NCBI GenBank assembly: GCA_038087875.1
Contig: CM075990.1
Coordinates: 14,572,001-14,636,000, forward strand
Direction: 5' to 3'
Length of the DNA: 64,000 nucleotides
DNA from: Malacoraja senta
Lineage: Eukaryota
The notes beneath the pieces are model-generated. The model was not told the DNA's origin and did not search any database. It saw only the letters and a program-made list of their open reading frames with translations. Both the position numbers and the translations under genes were made by a program. Shown here one piece after another: positions 3,099-58,077 of the stretch (positions within the stretch are counted from its first letter, which is position 1; every line of letters begins with the position of its first letter).

Positions 3099-5780
3099 GC
3101 TAGTGCAGGGCAAAAGCAACGTTAATCTAACTGGTCACTCCACACAGCTAACTGCGTTGATCTGACTCCGAAAAGGCTCTCACGAACAACCCACTCTCCC
3201 TGATCAGCTGATTTTTTTTCCATGCTGAAAGGAACAATTAGCCTCTGTTGTACATCACTCCCTGAAGGTATAATTGAGATATGAACGTTGTGCCTGAATC
3301 TTATTCCATAAAGTAATGCACCAAAACACCAAAGTTGCTCTGCTAATGATCACATGATTGTAGATTTGAACAGCAACTCAATTATTCAATTTTCTCATTA
3401 TATGTAATAACCATCCAGTGAAATCTTTATAAACCACCTTAAATGTTTGCTAGAACTGTGTACACACAGGAGCAAATAGTATTCACCATTGTATTTTATT
3501 GAACACAATTTTTTCGTACAAGTTCATTTTAAAAGTAAGTAAGTTTATTGGCCAAGTATTCACATACAAGGAATTTGCCTTGGTGCTCCACCCACAAGTA
3601 ACAACATGACATACAGTAACAGTTACGAATGACTCAGAAAACACTAAACATTAATAATAATAAAACATTAATGATAAAACACCATTGATCAAGCAAGGCA
3701 AAGACCTCCTGTACCCCATAACAATTGCCAATGCACGTTGGTCAGAACAGTGTGTCACTATCTGGTAGTGCCAGTGTTCTCCGTTTTCAGTCTCAACATG
3801 TTTAGAATGATAAGCCCAGGGTTCCTGCTGCTCTGTTTGCCTCTATTCGTACTGCAAAGATCTGCTCCTTTCTGAGGAGGAACCCTCGGTCTCTGTATGA
3901 CCCTTGCAGTTTCAATGTGTAGACTAGGACTATACTTCCTGACACCATGTTTCCCTCTTGCAAGGTGTTCTGGTGCAGATAGACACAAAATGCGGGAGTA
4001 GCTCAGCGGGTCAGGCAGCATCTCTGGAGAAAAGGAATAGGTGACGTTTCGGGTTGAGACCCTTAATCAGACTGGACATTCATCAGAGCCTTCTGGTGCA
4101 GAGTTGGTACTTTGATGAGCAAGTATTGGAAAACATCCCAGGAGAAACTTCCAATCAAACTTCTGAACGGTGCTTTCATAAGCTGGGGTACAGTCCTGGT
4201 TTTCCAATCTACCTCATTGGGGAACATTGGAACTACAATGCTAAGCAACTATATTCGGCACTGATATCTTTTGCTTCGCTCTACCTTTTATATTTATCGT
4301 GATGGTAGTCATGTTTAGCATTATCAAATTTGATTGGACAGCACTCAAACAAAAGCTTTTCACTTTACTTTGGTGCAAATGACAATAATAAACCTAAATA
4401 ATAGTTTGGGACAAAAGATAGACAACAAAGGTGGAGTAACTCAGGCAGCATCTCTGGAGAGAAGGAATGGGTGACATTTCTGGTCGAGACCCTTCTTCAG
4501 ACGCGTTATTTCTTGTTGCACTTGGGAATGCACTGCTGCATCGGAAAAATGGTGAATGTCTTCAGCAGCTTAAGTGGACAAACACGGCCAAAGATCCCAC
4601 ATTTTTCAACAAATTTGCAAATTCTGCCAAGGTCGGATTTGAATCCATTGTCTTGGCTTGCGTTGGTTGCTTATTTACACATTTTCCAAGACTACACATC
4701 TCCTCTCAATGCTAAGTGCCTGTTCAATATTTAAGTTGTTCTGCATATTGATAAGGTATTAATAATGGAAAATCTGGCATTTGACGTTGATTTATTGGCA
4801 TCGTCCAATTTACATGTGTCTATTTGTCGCCCAATACAAAGTGTATAGGTGTAAAACTGTCTGAATCTGCCGTGAAATATTCGCCGCCTTTCCACACAAG
4901 GAGGAAGAAAACTGACAAATGTTACTACTTGTGTAAAATATCCATTGCAGGCCAATTGCCTGTTAACGGAGGAGCTGATTTTCATTTGCCTCGATCTACC
5001 CACATGCAAATAAAAACGGCCAGTCTAAAAACAAGTTAATCCACAACTCTCAGATGTGACATATTAAAATCTACTCCGAGCTGCATGTACACCAGTTTCT
5101 TCAGCTAAGCTGGTTACTAACCATGCTGTTGATATGTGGGGTACTTTTTCGTGACATAGTTGTAATATGTTGACAATCTGACTATCTGAGAATGTAACTA
5201 ATTTTAAATTAATGCGATCCATCCTTGTGTACATCAAATGTACAGTTCTTTAAGAGCAATGTGATAGGTTTTATTTTAACTTGACAGGCAATTGATTGAG
5301 AATATTTGGAAGGGGAAAGTACAACTGCAGCAAAATGGTTCTAATTTATGTAGATTATAGTCAATTGAGGTTTTTCTTATCTTGACAGTTATGGATGTAC
5401 AGTATGTTTGGGTTTCAGCACAGTCGGTTGGAACCAAATAATGGCTGCAGGTGGTTTAAATTCGCATTCTTATGAAGAGCAAATTGTTGCCACAGTCGAG
5501 GTTAATTCTCAAGACATTTTCTTTTTCCGTGGGGGAGAAAAACTGCAGCAACCAAGTACCTGACAAATTGGTAAGACCGAATTTTTAATGAAGGTTTTCT
5601 TGAAGAAACCAATGTTGAGAGCAGAATTAAATGTTAAGTTATCAGAGGAGTGACATGTGATTGTCTCCAGCCCATGTAGCGCAGTGGGAGGCGAGCTTCA
5701 TGATAATCCCAGTGGGCCCAGTGGAACTCGAGCAGCCTGGGGTCTATTAAAAGAGGCACCCCGAAGGTAGTAGTTGTTTA

Positions 5781-13507: not shown

Positions 13508-13646
13508 GGGGTGGGAGATTGCAACCTTTATGTGGTCCATGCTGTTTCAACTAATACAATCAACCCAACGTGCACAAACAAATAGATGTAGTTTTTCATG
13601 CCACTTGATCTACAACTTTAGGCCCAGCACGCCATACGCAAGAAGA
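13508..13646 (+). mobile_element. Ribozyme-headed short retroposon, diverged copy
   Basis: GGGGTGGGAGATTGCAACC start, GCACGCCATACGCAAGAAG end, imperfect TSD AGC..CCTACT; homologous to copies at 32780 and 57256. Confidence 0.8.
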
Positions 13647-14048
13647 AGCTGCCTACTTCAAATATTTTGTATTTTGTTAATTCTGGCCAAATTGGAGATG
13701 CCAGGACATTAAAATTGAGTAAAGGCTTCTGTGCTGCTAGGCCATATGGTCAATTTAAATGTGCCTTCTGCAGAAATGGGACAAGCTGCAGAATGGTGCC
13801 AGCTTGTCTGGAGCCCAGATAAGAGTTGCAGGGAAAGAATGGAACATCTGCAGATTCTTACAATTAGGTGAAAATTGCATGAAACGGATTGGGTGAATGC
13901 AAACCAGACATACATATTGTTAATAATGTTGCAAAGCTTTACTTTGCTAGATGTTGATTGGGTTAAGTGTTGAGCCTTGACTGGGTTTCTCGAATATCTA
14001 GGCAAATGTTGCTGTTTGCTTCCTTCCAGAAGCTCCTTTCGAATACAA

Positions 14049-14440: not shown

Positions 14441-15843
14441 TCCCCCAATTGTCAAATTTGCATGAACCTAATGTCCTTGTCATCTTTGCTGGATTGCTTC
14501 AAAGGTGAATGAATAACCATCTGTTTTTGTACTACCGCAATGTCTTTCCATTCATTGTTTACAAAGGCACAATGGGCTGCCTGAAGTTAGAAGCAACAGG
14601 ATTATTCACCTAGAATAAACACTGATGTCAGGAATGACACTCGTGCATTATATTCTACTCAATCATTAAGTGAATGCCTATCCTTGTTGCTCATACAGAT
14701 TCTGTGTGAGATAATGGGTTTCTGTTTCCATTCAAATGTGGTCCAGTGTTCTTTACTCTTGAGACCAATTTGGCATGGACAGAAAGTTTTGCTTGAGACG
14801 TAAAGATAGACAGCATGGAAATGGGCCCTTTGTCCCACCATGTCTAAGCTAGGCACCTACCACCCATTTATACTAATCTACCAATCCACACATCTTTGGG
14901 TTATGGGGCACGGCCAGAGCACCTTGGACACCCATGCAATCACAGCGAGATCATGCAAACTCCACACCGACAGCACCAGAGATCATGATTTAAATAAGGG
15001 AGGGTGGAAAAGGGAGGGGCTGATGAGGCAGAGAAATATTGTAATGTTAGATCAAGTTGGCTGTATATCTACAGATCAAAATCCCAAACTGTTGTATACA
15101 AAAGCAATGAAAAATGAGTAATGGAGCTTGCTTGAAATGTCATACCTAAAGCTGTGATGTGATTGGAACCCATAGATTATGGCTTGACCCCTGAATGACC
15201 ATTAATATTGTCACAGTAAGTGATGGGGGGGAATATGAGTAAGCACTTGTCCCATCCTTTAAACAGTTCCAACTGTAGAAGTGACTGGAATAACCAAGAA
15301 ATAATTCAAAATTGCCCAAATTCAGCTCTTCTCTCCTCCTGTTGCCAAACCTTAGAAAGCATTCTTGTCATCCTGTGGACTGATTAATTTGATGTCATTG
15401 CAAAGGAAAGTTGGCAAGTGCAGAAAGAAGCAGACACTTAGTCATGGATACTTTTCAGACATTTAGTTAATTCAAATTTGTCTAAAGTAAGAATGTTTAA
15501 TGTCATACAGTCATTTAACGTCTGTGAAGCATTCACACATCATAAGAATATATAAATGCTAAGATACATGTATTTTCTCAATCCTAAGAATAGACTTCAA
15601 AGCAGGATTCATTAGTCTGATTACCTTATGAACTTAATCGGCACTCATTCATCACCTGAAACATTCATTCCCCCCCCCCCCCGTAAATAACAGCACACAG
15701 AAACTACATTGAGTCCCCTCCACAAAATGGATCCACTCGAGCAAACCTGACACTACCTCCCAAATCTGTAGCCTCTGCCATCAAGTGCTACACGCACTAG
15801 GGACAACTTACAATTTTGCCAAGCCAATTAACCTACAAACCTG

Positions 15844-16993
15844 AAGGTACACAAAAAAAAAACTACCGACTCCCATGGCTATCTGGACTACACTTCTTCC
15901 CACCCTGCTTCCTGTAAGGACTCCATCCCCCACTCCCAATTCCTCCGTCTACGCCGCATCTGCTCCCAGGATGAGGCGTTCCACACCAGGGCATCCGAAA
16001 TGTCCTCATTCTTCAGGGAACGGGGGTTCCCCTCCTCCACCATAGATGAGGCTCGCACCAGTGTCTCTGCCATAACCCGCAACACTGCTCTCTCTCCCCA
16101 TCCCCCCACTCACAACAAGGGCAGAGTCCCCCTAGTCCTCACCTTTCACACCACCAGCCGTCACATACAACAAGTGATCCTCCGTCAGTTTCGCCACCTC
16201 CAACGTGACCCCACCACTCGCCACATCTTCCCATCTCCCCCCATGTCTGCCTTCCGCAAAGACCGCTCCCTCCGTAACTCCATTGTCAATTCTTCCCTTC
16301 CCTCCCATACCACCCCCTCCCCTGGTACTTTCCCTTGAAACCGCAAGAGATGCAACACTTGTCCCTTCACCTCCCCCCTCTACTCCATTCAAGGACCCAA
16401 GCAGTCGTTCCAGGTGCGACAGAGGTTCACCTGCATCTCCTCCAACCTCATCTATTGCATTCGCTGCTCTAGATGCCAGCTGATCTACATCGGTGAGACC
16501 AAGCGGAGGCTTGGCGATCGTTTCGCCGAACACCTCCGGTCGGTCCGCAATAACCAACCTGAACTCCCGGTGGCTCAGCACTTCAACTCCCCCTCCCATT
16601 CCGTATCTGACCTCTCTGTCCTGGGTCTCCTCCATGGCCACAGCGAGCAACACCGTAAATTGGAGGAAATGCACCTCATATTCCACTTGGGCAGTCTACA
16701 TCCTGGGGGCTTGAACATTGAATTCTCCCAATTCTGCTAGCCCTTGCTGTCACCTCCCCTTCATCAGCCCTCTGGTTGTCTCCTCCCCTCCCCCAGCCCT
16801 CAGGCTCCTCCTCCACCTTTTTCCTTTTTTCCTTTCTTCTCCCCACCCCCTATCAGTCTGAAGAAGGGTTTCAGCCCGAAACGTTGCCTATTTCCTTAGC
16901 TCCATAGATGCTGCTGCACCCGCTGAGTTTCTCCAGCATTTTTTTTTTTTTGTGTACCTTCGATTTTCCAGCATCTGCAGTTCCTTCTTTAAC
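15844..16993 (+). mobile_element. 5'-truncated Penelope-like element (Neptune-like), nested in a SINE
   Basis: 14-bp duplication AACCTACAAACCTG at 15830-15843 and 16994-17007; RT-thumb and GIY-YIG coding region; short inverted terminal fragment at the 5' junction. Confidence 0.92.
15862..16740 (+). pseudogene. Penelope polyprotein C-terminus (RT thumb, Cys linker, GIY-YIG endonuclease) with one in-frame stop at 16336
   Basis: YLDYTSSHP..IPHSQFLRLRRICS; RCNTCP; NLIYCIRCSRCQLIYIGETKRRLGDRFAEH; ORFs 16000 and 16414 are in the same frame. Confidence 0.9.
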
Positions 16994-22335: not shown

Positions 22336-22672
22336 TTTGAATATAACACATTCAAGGTTTCTGGAAAAATAAATCACAGATCAATCCTGGGAACATAATT
22401 TCTGTGCCTCTGGGAGTTCAGACTTTTTGGCTGCTTGTTTTATTTTGCACAAGTTTTGTTTTGGATCGTGTTCTGGGAAGATAGACTGCTGGTTGATTTG
22501 TGGGGATGAGCAAGATGGATGGTTGTAAGATTGCACAGAGAACAGCTGCAATCCCTTAGTCTGAAGGATCATTGGACATGTCAGAGGAAAGGAGATTTCT
22601 GCAGAGCAGTCAGCTGAGAGAATTGATCTTGTTCATTTGCTTCTTAAAATGATGATTGTGATGATATTATAG

Positions 22673-23039
22673 GTGCTTTCCACCACTCAATCAGCTTGGA
22701 AAAAGGAATGGGAGTCCAAGGACGTCCCAAATAAATATCTGGTGTCAGACCCAACCCTATCTGGTGTCAGACCCCACCCTGCCACCAATCTCCCAAGGAA
22801 GCATTGGACGACGCTGAATAGATTCAGGACTGGACATGGCCCCTGCTTGGCCAGCCTTCACAAATGGGGCAGCAGCCCAACCCCACGGTGTGTTTGTGGA
22901 GAGCAGCAAACAATGCAACACATCATTGAAGCATGCCCTCAAAAAAGACTTAAAGGAGGACTTGTCACCCTTCATACAGCAGATCAAGAGGCAACTGCTT
23001 GGCTAAAGGACTTTGCATTCGCTAAATAAAAAAAATAAA
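22673..23039 (+). mobile_element. Ingi/Vingi-like non-LTR retrotransposon 3' fragment
   Basis: Open ORF LPRKHWTTLNRFRTGHG..LHKWG..P.CVCGEQQTMQHIIEACP (CCHC finger) ending directly in a TAAA/A-rich tail. Confidence 0.65.
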
Positions 23040-23448
23040 CTGCGGTGATTGCATGCATTTTGACAGTCAGGAGCGATGTGACACTCTGCCGGTTATCCTG
23101 GTGTTGGACAAAATTGTCATGGCTGAAATTCAAACCACCATAAATAAATGGCTACTTTCCAGCAGCTATAAGTTAGAACCATATTTCTTGTTCCACAGGG
23201 ATAAAAGCCATACCAGTGTCAAAATCCATTACAGCATTTCATTGGAAATATTTCTGTAAAATTAGAACAGGAACTGGCTGGCGAATACTTGTTAATACAG
23301 CACTGTGTAACACACGCCACATTTGGAATTTATTAGAGGATTATTAGTCAATTGTTTTATTATCCAGTAAATCCGATGTGATTATGTGACTTGATGGACA
23401 TTGCTATCCGTAACTGTGATCGGAGCATCCACCTTTAATACTAACCCT

Positions 23449-24420: not shown

Positions 24421-24877
24421 TTGGTTCTTCCAATGAAACATGGAGTTAAACAAGGTTTATGGGAGAATGGTTAATTCCTGGAGCTATATTATTAATGACC
24501 TGGATTTAGTTTATCCTAAGTAGGACACTTACTGCAGTGGTATAAAACACTTAGCTATTTATATTAAAAAAATACTATATCTCTGCAGTTGTAGCTTTCT
24601 TTGGAATGAAGATGACTTGCTTACCTTCCTCAGTTAGGTGACTGAAGAGGCTAATGTGGTAACTGTGCCTTCCACAAAATGGACAGGAGATGTGTGATGG
24701 GGAAATGAAATGGGTAAAATGTGATGTGGTGCACTCCTGGGCTGCTGTCTGCTCCCAACACATGGACTCCATTTTGTCAACAGTATCGCAAATGTTCTTT
24801 CTCCTCCCTGAACTTTCTCTACTCTGAAATCCAGAGAGTCCCAAGGTGAGGGGGATGCTTGGGATGGCCGGGACAGA

Positions 24878-25428
24878 CACTATCTTGGAAACTTTCCAAT
24901 CAGGTTTCAGGGCTCACCATAGCACAGAGTCTGCCTTGTTGAAGGTACACAATGACCTACTGCTCACTGTTGACTCCGGCGACTGTGCAATTCTGCTCCT
25001 TCTTGACCTCAGCGCAGCATTTGATACTGTCGACCACACCATCCTAATTCACTGTCTCCGGTATGGGGTTGGTATTGATGGCACTGCCCTGAACTGGTTC
25101 ATCTCCTACCTCAAAGGTAGGAGTTTCTCGACTAACATAGGCAACTCTTTCTCCTCCCCAGCTAATCTCTGCTGGGGGGTTCCACAAGGTTCCATCCTTG
25201 GCCCCATTCTCTTCTCCCTGTATATGCTCCCCTTAGGCCAAGTCATTGAAAGGCACGGCATTTCCTTCCATTGCTACGCAGACGATACACAACTGAGTGA
25301 GGGCTACATGTATATATGTATGTAGTTTGTTTTGTTTGTGCTATTCTCATAACAAATGTAAAGCACTTTGGCCAATGAGAGTTATTTTTTAAATGTGCTA
25401 TATAAATAAATGTGACTTGACTTGACTT
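24878..25428 (+). mobile_element. L2 LINE with reverse transcriptase fragment joined to the 3' tail
   Basis: FQSGFRAHHSTESAL..LLDLSAAFDTVDH..GVPQGSILGP..YADDTQL, then L2 tail TGTAAAGCACTTTG..TGCTATATAAATAAA(GACTT)n. Confidence 0.92.
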
Positions 25429-32779: not shown

Positions 32780-32918
32780 TCTTCTTCTTGCGTATGGCGT
32801 GCACAGCCTAAAGTTGTAGGACAACTTGTTCTACTTGATCTTATTTGATTGTGCACGCCAGGTTGATTGCATTCGTCAAAACAGGGCGGACCACGTGAAG
32901 GTTGCAATCTCCCACCCC
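32780..32918 (-). mobile_element. Ribozyme-headed short retroposon, best-preserved copy
   Basis: (AAG)n tail; 12-bp TSD GAGCAAAATACT / AAGCAGAATACT (2 mismatches); homologous to 13508 and 57256. Confidence 0.9.
32865..32918 (-). ncRNA. Predicted minimal HDV-like self-cleaving ribozyme (54 nt)
   Basis: P1 GGGGUGG/CCGCCCU with G1-U wobble, P2 GAUUGCA/UGCAAUC, P3 ACC/GGU, L3 UUCACGU, GU, UUUGA in place of P4, J4/2 CGAA. Confidence 0.85.
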
Positions 32919-56389: not shown

Positions 56390-57255
56390 GAAATAGATAG
56401 ATTCTTGATTAATACGGGTGTCAGAGGTTATGGGGAGATGGCAGTGGAATGGGGTTAGGAGGAAGAGATAGATCAGCCATGATTGAATGGCAGATTAGAC
56501 TTGATGGCCCTATTCCTTATGACATGGTTCAGTAACTACATTCATTTCAAGTGGAGAACAATGACTTTGGGGGAGAGAGACAAGCTCTTTTGTCAGTCGA
56601 GTCAACTTAAATGTTTTTGACTATTTTATGTTTTTAAAAGAAAATCAAAATACATTTAAAATATTGTGTTAACTTTGACTGCTGATGGGTCTGAGTCTTA
56701 ACTAGTCTTAAGGCATTTCGAAGGATGGAGCTGGCTTTTTTCAGTGGATAAGAGTCACGTACTTGGTTGGTCCAACAATTTGGTTCTCCAACCCTATTTC
56801 ATCTATTGTCACTCCCTTATCTATTCCTTTATATCATCCAAAAACACCAATCTCTAATCTACAGGAATTATTCCATAATCTATAGAATTTTGGAAGATTA
56901 TAAACATTATTACCATGGCTACCTCTTTTGGATTGCAGAGTATGAGGTCCTGGAGATATGGCAGCTTTCAATCCTTTAATATCCTTAACACTACTCATCA
57001 CAAAAAAAAATCCTTCAATCTACTAATTTATTAGATTCTTAAGAATTTCTGGATAGCTATATATGTTTTCTTCTGTAAGGACCAAAGTAATTGTTTAATT
57101 GTTCTACCATTTCTTTGTTCCTTAGTTATTATAAATTCTTCTTTTTTCTGACTGCAAGGGATCAAACTTTGTCTTCAGTATTCTTTTGTACTTTTTGCAC
57201 AGAAGCCTTTGAAGGTTTGTCTTCAAACTAGTTTCCTTCTATCAATTAAATTCAG

Positions 57256-57309
57256 GGGGTGGAAGATTGCAACCTTCATGTGGTCCGCCCTGTTTCCACG
57301 AATGCAATC
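57256..57309 (+). ncRNA. Predicted minimal HDV-like ribozyme (54 nt)
   Basis: P1, P2 and P3 intact as in the 32918 copy; L3 UUCAUGU; UUCCA linker; CGAA. Confidence 0.78.
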
Positions 57310-57399
57310 AACCTGACGTGCACAATCAAATAAGGTCAAATAGAACAAGTTGTCCTCCAACTTTAGGCTGTGCACGCCATACGCAAGAAGAAGGAGAAG
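57256..57399 (+). mobile_element. Ribozyme-headed short retroposon
   Basis: TSD AATTAAATTC(A/G)G at 57244-57255 and 57400-57411; (AAG)n tail. Confidence 0.9.
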
Positions 57400-57412
57400 A
57401 ATTAAATTCGGG

Positions 57413-57665
57413 ATGGACAAAAATGCTGGAGAAACTCAGTGGGTGAGGCAGCATCTATGGAGCGTAGGTACACAAAAATGCTGGAGAAACTCAGCGGGTG
57501 CAGCAGCATCTATGGAGCGAAGGAGATAGGCAACGTTTTGGGCCGAAACCCTTCTTCAGAATCCATTCTTCAGATCTATGCTCCATAGATGCTGCCTCAC
57601 CCGCTGAGTTTCCCCAGCATTTTTGTCTACCTTTGATTTTCCAGCATCTGCAGTTCCTTCTTAAA
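57413..57665. mobile_element. Nested or fold-back Penelope terminal units
   Basis: Two reverse units followed by a forward unit. Confidence 0.8.
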
Positions 57666-58077
57666 AATCAAATTCAGAATCCTTTTTGATAAATCCCAAA
57701 CTGCTCCAGATCCTCGGGCCTTCTACTTTCTCTGGTAATTTTATTAACTTCTATTTGGATCGAATGCGACCTTGAACTACTTTTGTTAGCTATAGATGGG
57801 CCACTTTTCCTTTTGTGCTTTTGCTCCATAATGAAATCCATAACTATTCCACTTCTTGTATTCATTCCTTAAATATTCCTCATAGCATTACCAAGCACCA
57901 TCATGTTTTTCAGTAAAGATTGCCTATCCATCATAGCTAACTCACTCCTCATTACTTTATAGTTTTCTTTATTTAGATTTAGAACACTGGTTTCAGATTG
58001 AGTGACCTATCTTACTGAAAATTTCTATCACATTATGGTCACTCTTCCCTGAAGGACCTGCACAGCAAGATTATTAA

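Follow-up and report, generated by a model that had tools for sequence, protein, structure and literature searches.

The question raised by this locus is whether a short repeat copy, lying at 57244..57411 in the 64,000 nucleotides of DNA that were analyzed (the window), begins where a small self-cleaving ribozyme would have cut its RNA and, if so, what kind of element such a ribozyme heads and which enzyme moves it. The original prediction described an independent insertion that starts at the predicted cleavage site and keeps all three helices; its observation is confirmed by our analysis and its interpretation is partly supported. Our best reading is that the copy is one of many of an abundant ~138-140 nt non-autonomous non-LTR retroelement consisting of a ribozyme and a hairpin. 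We consider it likely that this ~138-nt element joins a 54-nt P4-less HDV-type ribozyme to a ~80-nt hairpin with an (AAG)n tail and is mobilized by a Vingi-type LINE.

Architecture of the element and its predicted ribozyme

Three copies of the ~140-nt element were found in the 64-kb window, at 57256-57399 (+), 32918-32780 (-) and 13508-13648 (+), and no further ones were recovered there with blastn and nhmmer; a 21-nt pattern from the element 5′ end matched the window three times and 100 shuffles not at all. The third copy was absent from the original prediction and begins at the same G. The features of the locus, followed by the other two copies, are:

57244..57255 (+), 5′ copy of the TSD, 12 nt with 1 mismatch; readings of 10 or 13 nt are equally good
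57256..57309 (+), P4-less minimal HDV/CPEB3-type ribozyme fold, with predicted cleavage 5′ of G57256
57256-62/57285-91 (+), P1, 7 bp, with wobbles G1.U and U5.G
57263-64 (+), J1/2
57265-71/57303-09 (+), P2, 7 bp
57272-74/57282-84 (+), P3, 3 bp
57275-81 (+), L3, 7 nt
57292 (+), G, the probable P1.1 partner of C57277, followed by U57293
57294-98 (+), linker replacing P4, 5 nt
57299-302 (+), J4/2, CGAA, with the putative catalytic C57299
57310..57384 (+), non-coding body; in the family form an outer stem (57314-24/57369-79) and an inner hairpin (57347-63)
57385..57399 (+), (AAG)n microsatellite tail
57400..57411 (+), 3′ copy of the TSD
32780..32918 (-), second full-length copy, 93.6% identical to the 57256 copy and nearer the family majority
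13508..13648 (+), third full-length copy, 78.7% identical to the 57256 copy, with a different middle body

The predicted structure of 57256-57309 is confirmed as a complete HDV/CPEB3-type double pseudoknot without P4. Pairing in P1, P2 and P3 is complete (17/17 pairs) in the 57256 and 32918 copies and reaches 15/17 in the 13508 copy, which has one broken pair in P1 and one in P2, together with a U-A pair in P1 and CUAA in J4/2, both occurring as family variants. That the fold is beyond chance follows from two matches of a fold descriptor in the window (the 57256 and 32918 copies) against none in 2821 dinucleotide shuffles, both strands, with a descriptor that was composed with the sequence known and loosened at one L3 position to admit the 57256 copy. 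The HDV-like descriptor in the relevant part of PMC6326823 specifies G1-Y, fixed U20, C24 and G25 in L3, and C-R-R-A in J4/2, and these features are present in the family majority. The L3 residues U20, C24 and G25 are all found in the 32918 copy, while the 57256 copy has U at position 24 (57279). P1.1 offers one possible C-G pair, its only Watson-Crick one, and a U.U; both are invariant and so uninformative for covariation. The 5-nt linker without P4 is common to all three window copies, and no indel at or above 4% is among those listed there in four public runs. Neither the window nor the surroundings of either copy had an Rfam match at the gathering score or at E up to 10, other than chance matches with E 3-10; the missing P4 may be the reason why an HDV-type match is lacking.

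The TSD of the 57256 copy can be read as 10/10 exact and ending 2 nt before G1, as 12 nt with one mismatch and ending directly before G1, or as 13 nt with one mismatch and including G1. The predicted start at the cleavage site holds to within these few bases: a TSD is present and its junction lies near G1, and a fit of 10, 12 or 13 nt does not fix the base. Since the mismatch, at 57254, is a change of the CG-to-CA type, this TSD was probably perfect at insertion. The TSD of the 32918 copy is 11 nt long and has one mismatch, and an additional T stands ahead of G1; that of the 13508 copy is 11 nt with two mismatches and ends directly before G1. All three copies therefore start no more than 1 nt from the end of the best-fitting TSD (for the 57256 copy, an equal-scoring exact 10-nt TSD ends 2 nt earlier), and all three have an (AAG)n tail. 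In common with bipartite non-autonomous LINE derivatives, the element has a TSD, a simple-repeat tail, no ORF and many dispersed copies.

The body is a putative reverse-transcriptase recognition region. In the 32918 copy it forms an 11-bp stem around a 7-bp inner hairpin (z -3.4, 1/200 shuffles), and in the 57256 (z -0.6) and 13508 (z -0.3) copies it folds no better than shuffles. The description of the 57256 copy as intact therefore applies to its helices, all of which pair, and not to L3 position 24, a U where the family has the C fixed in the published descriptor, nor to the body hairpin, which is decayed. The middle body differs by subfamily (13562-13648 in the 13508 copy, and contig pieces elsewhere), with the ribozyme and the last ~20 nt constant; the 13508 copy has a different hairpin insert there, and several contig pieces show 11-14 gaps. 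An abundant palindromic repeat of ~95-200 nt occupies 57412-57671 and some 30 other sites in the window; one of its copies immediately follows the element's 3′ TSD, and its own 5′ loose ends are scattered over 57416, 57419 and 57420.

The coordinates, the helices and the differences from the 32918 copy that had been given for this locus are correct: within the 54 nt the two copies differ at four positions (8, 24, 41 and 42), all unpaired. As evidence for the fold this pattern has little weight, because three of the four differences lie at CpG sites and the 13508 copy has broken pairs in P1 and P2. That all four differences should fall in unpaired positions has a chance of 0.016 with uniform rates and 0.05-0.11 with CpG rates 5-15 times higher, and of the eight differences between the 13508 and 57256 copies four are in paired positions. 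Post-insertion mutations are not expected to respect the fold, and those of the 13508 copy do not.

Variation and 5′ ends across the family

The stretch, whole or in part, is present in 20 of 22 public runs under eight organism codes, and four runs were examined, comparing contigs only at 80% likeness and a 4% share, with shares weighted by depth and not equivalent to copy counts. One public run, X1, is possibly the source sample. Each of the four runs has 57256 as the only 5′ junction of the element among those listed (146, 245, 256 and 382 contigs, where contigs with G at -1 would score one base earlier), and the main 3′ loose end among those listed was 57393 followed by AAG (197, 424, 395 and 513 contigs). 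The heterogeneous 5′ ends that would have spoken against a ribozyme-defined start were thus not seen among the listed junctions in any of the four runs. Copies number in the hundreds or more, dispersed through several related animal genomes.

Seven variable positions are listed inside the fold, each of them a CpG base in the majority sequence; the listing under-reports variants close to the 5′ end, as 57263, at which two of the three window copies differ, does not appear in it. At 57279, where the 57256 copy has U, the family has C in 70-94% of depth. P1 varies at 57286 (C>T, 3-5%) and 57287 (G>A, 5-17%), with pairing kept in both cases, and the linker at 57296 (C>T, 2-5%) and 57297, where G at 80-85% and A at 15-19% in 4/4 runs bear out the predicted consensus linker UUCGA. 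The putative catalytic C57299 (the C75 equivalent) changes in 1.9-4.2% of depth, against 16-38% for its neighbor G57300. Variation at G57300 includes G>T at 11-27%, which gives CUAA, departs from the first R of C-R-R-A and is not explained by CpG decay. No variant was listed at 4% for the G25 equivalent and none at or above 4% for P2 and P3, and the changes in P1 are one-sided and pair-keeping only; outside the fold, family variants concentrate at 57353-57, in and beside the inner loop of the body. The distribution of variants suggests that the family spares critical ribozyme bases. Two-sided covariation within the family was absent from the variants listed in the four runs. The covariation between subfamilies to which the original prediction had looked was not seen; covariation was found only between element families.

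In runs X2, X4 and X13, one contig each leads from the unique flank into the element (57130-57278, with 3, 3 and 5 other letters), and the insertion therefore predates the split of those organisms. Each of these contigs has two differences absent from the variant listing; 57254 and 57263 are natural candidates for them and would give a perfect TSD and GA in J1/2. No empty insertion site was found among the joints listed, and the insertion is present in three other organisms. Shared with these three, the 57256 copy is old and partly decayed and is not a source copy.

Relatives, partner LINE and alternative explanations

The supplement of PMC5786205 prints the 5′ end of the LINE Vingi-2_Gav, in which we recognize by eye an HDV-type fold with the L3 heptamer, P1 end, J4/2 and spacing from the first G of our element, on different stems and with P4 present. 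Ribozymes are stated in PMC5786205 for Ingi, RTE and other clades, and no such statement for Vingi-2_Gav was seen in the parts consulted. A core scan of metagenome contigs returned at least 116 loci, nearly all of them chance. Two of the 115 loci scored, L113 and L067, reach at least 14/16 unspecified pairs, against 37/34200 in a flank-swap null, and L073 is a decayed homologue of L113 with 12/16 pairs. L073 and L113 lead into an ORF for an APE endonuclease. Full-length relatives of this ORF encode, in a single frame, ~1045 aa with APE, RT and, at the C-terminus, a Cys/His knuckle that we take to be a mark against RTE; RNase H gave no match in the three full-length relatives scanned. A PDB search returned general RT matches only. 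The APE+RT single-ORF layout agrees with the portion of PMC13708176 describing Vingi domains, and the label Vingi-type is used here for this layout together with the knuckle, not for a position in a tree with named references.

Columns 1-38 are free of gaps between the three window copies and the three ribozyme-like metagenome loci; the core is shared with Vingi-type 5′ ends of other organisms. In the six-sequence alignment 9/17 pairs change on both sides, compared with at most 5 in slid controls, in a test that is partly circular, since the core was built into the metagenome pattern and pairing was the basis for choosing L067 and L113; a misalignment of L113 in P2 lowers the P2 counts. All but one of the two-sided changes separate element families, and G1.U occurs in 6/6 sequences (its U side fixed by the search pattern for three). 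We regard this between-family covariation as supporting evidence for the stems and not as independent proof. Patterns specific to the family had no match in metagenome or viral contigs, and a core-motif scan of the viral contigs gave six loci, none with full pairing. A metagenome repeat family (L011, L072, L093 and L097) has the same L3 and P3, a 5-nt linker and CUAA, no compact P1/P2, and homology that extends far upstream; it is possibly another P4-less or rearranged ribozyme. L067 carries at 3995-4060 (-) a decayed CPEB3/Vingi-type ribozyme with P4, with no Vingi-type ORF or clear TSD downstream.

One further feature of the window bears on the partner LINE:

22661..23040 (+), 3′ end of a 5′-truncated Vingi-type LINE (tblastn E 2e-17; profile iE 8e-22); its tail is rich in A/TAAA and a clear TSD is lacking

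The fragment places the Vingi clade in this genome. It was rejected as the matching partner, since alignment of its 3′ end with the element scores 14-15, below the null maximum of 27-31, and its tail differs; the two have only 6/7 of a heptamer before the tail in common, a weak signal with 7 window matches against 4.1 expected. Read-through of the element tail was not found at the C-termini of 175 proteins. Elsewhere in the window lie a stretch at 15832-16740 (+) with a GIY-YIG match, which we take to be Penelope-like, and an RT fragment at 24828-25325 (+), presumably of another LINE.

Our best guess is that the element is probably moved by a Vingi-type LINE, with a second Vingi family as the candidate partner. 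The same element and ribozyme could alternatively be mobilized by an RTE-clade LINE, in which case the element would be a bipartite derivative of RTE comparable to RTESINE or Bov-A. RTE elements typically end in short microsatellites, for example GAA, and the tail of the Vingi-type fragment in the window is different from that of the element. However, the ribozyme core agrees in register with Vingi-type 5′ ends and the Vingi-type profile detects only two RT-related stretches in the window, and we consider RTE mobilization unlikely. A retrozyme was rejected because the copies are monomeric with TSD and the window has no Rfam hammerhead match, and a theta ribozyme because the window holds no tRNA gene and the viral contigs no true matches.

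The uniform 5′ end raises a separate issue. Separate insertions sharing one 5′ nucleotide had been put forward as what a ribozyme-defined RNA end predicts, and the sharing itself stands in the window copies and the four runs, but a uniform 5′ end can have other sources than a ribozyme. It could stem from an internal promoter, such as Pr77 of L1Tc/NARTc, with a P4-less fold that is slow or vestigial and mainly protects the RNA 5′ end. Pr77 serves as promoter and as ribozyme, and inactivity despite adequate folding is on record for some SIDER ribozymes (PMC4035085); insertion of R2 templates is aided by the fold itself (PMC11331408). The activity of our element is a prediction, and its P1.1 has just one Watson-Crick pair. 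Yet P1.1 with non-canonical pairs, as in cellular examples, still permits fast cleavage (PMC13635239), minimal P4-less ribozymes are active (PMC6326823, PMC10879173), and few CpG bases of the fold vary as little as the putative catalytic C. An exact match to the usual A or B box consensus is absent from all three copies, near matches being misplaced, so that no Pol III boxes stand in the SINE-head arrangement, and an internal promoter with a vestigial fold seems quite improbable to us. The lack of these boxes, with the lack of tRNA genes in the window (ARAGORN), also bears on the reading as an ordinary tRNA-headed SINE, in which the likeness of the 5′ end to a ribozyme would be accidental. Uniform G-rich starts occur in tRNA SINEs too, and the window has no Rfam ribozyme match, but the descriptor is not matched in the shuffles and the stems covary across families. 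This last reading is largely refuted, and we give it hardly any credence.

Proposed cycle and comparison with known systems

In the cycle that we propose for the Vingi-mobilized element, a copy would be transcribed by read-through from a host promoter. As expected from what is known of the family, the ribozyme would then fold and cut 5′ of G1 with C57299 as general acid, and cleavage would free a unit RNA with a 5′-OH end protected by the pseudoknot. An autonomous LINE with a single APE+RT ORF, most likely of Vingi type, would supply in trans the protein that binds the 3′ hairpin, and target-primed reverse transcription on the AAG tail at the nick would leave the TSD of 10-13 nt that is observed together with the tail. 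Because the template is so short, many copies would be full length and start at G1, where the main junction is observed. Tentatively, and with less than even confidence, we go further and suggest a promoter-less retroelement cut down to two essential RNA parts, an active 54-nt P4-less ribozyme and an RT-binding hairpin, that was spread to high copy in a vertebrate lineage by a Vingi LINE.

If true, this would be the first eukaryotic home and function for minimal HDV-like ribozymes, and Vingi-type 5′ ends would be the pool from which CPEB3-type ribozymes came. The family would offer a series of natural mutants of the smallest HDV fold and let one test directly whether SINE 5′ ends can be set by cleavage in the absence of a promoter, and its copies would be many potential self-cleavage sites spread across host transcripts. 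The ~140-nt module of 5′ and 3′ parts would also mark out which cis sequences a Vingi-type LINE needs at minimum, the Vingi clade being now in use for gene insertion (PMC13708176). In the literature covered, mostly titles and abstracts, neither this element family nor an animal retroelement carrying a P4-less ribozyme was reported; the family may already be deposited in Repbase or Dfam.

HDV-like ribozymes form the 5′ ends of several LINEs and their short derivatives (PMC6765202, PMC7761336, PMC3414825). Ribozyme-headed LINEs and such derivatives are thus known, and a P4-less ribozyme heading a high-copy animal repeat would be new. NARTc, RIME and SIDER of the L1Tc/ingi clade (PMC4035085) and the R2 SIDEs (PMC3414825), like our element, carry a ribozyme of HDV-like type at the first base, a non-coding body and a LINE-type 3′ end, and are moved in trans. 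In contrast to them, our element is without P4, is only ~138 nt long and reaches hundreds of copies or more in a vertebrate-type genome, its partner LINE being a candidate at present. RTESINE, WALLSI3 and RTE-N (PMC5786205) resemble it in their short build from LINE 5′ and 3′ parts, microsatellite tail and TSD. Four element motifs of 9-11 nt were absent from the consulted supplement of PMC5786205, and a fifth, of 7 nt, has a single occurrence there, within the tRNA head of an unrelated SINE. To judge by the other repeats, the host may be a cartilaginous fish. The SINE/LINE pair table excerpted from PMC3747384 gives tRNA-headed SINEs as the only kind for sharks and rays.

Minimal P4-less HDV-like ribozymes are ~99% confined to phages, according to the sections of PMC10879173 consulted, in which the eukaryotes searched were human, mouse and protists only and the origin and function of these ribozymes are given as undetermined. 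Both drz-Mtgn-1 and the theta ribozymes (PMC10879173) are like our element in lacking P4, in their length of ~54 nt and in the catalytic C in J4/2. The theta and minimal phage ribozymes often follow a tRNA (PMC10879173), whereas the fold described here heads a retroelement.

Vingi 5′ ends (Vingi-2_Gav, PMC5786205; L073 and L113) share with the element a G-rich P1 start with G1.U, an identical L3 heptamer, a P1 strand ending before GU, C-G-A-A in J4/2 and the same spacing from G1 to L3. They differ in the P1, P2 and P3 sequences, in a 12-24 nt insert or P4 stem where the element has its 5-nt linker, and in the ORF that follows. In the sequences printed in PMC5786205, we read the Vingi-2_Gav 5′ end and its copy inside the alligator SINE2-1_AMi as CPEB3-like ribozyme folds.

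The CPEB3 ribozyme of mammals, which has P4, completes the comparison. It is like our element in the L3 heptamer, in the same register, and in a weak P1.1, and differs from it in being a single conserved intronic copy with different stems (PMC10919898, PMC13635239). A mouse Cpeb3 ribozyme primer that lies 18 nt from the cleavage site contains the L3 heptamer of the element in that register (PMC10919898), and by eye it matches the Vingi-2_Gav 5′ end at 14/15 nt, again in the same register (PMC10919898, PMC5786205). These sequence likenesses hint at a Vingi origin of the CPEB3 ribozyme.
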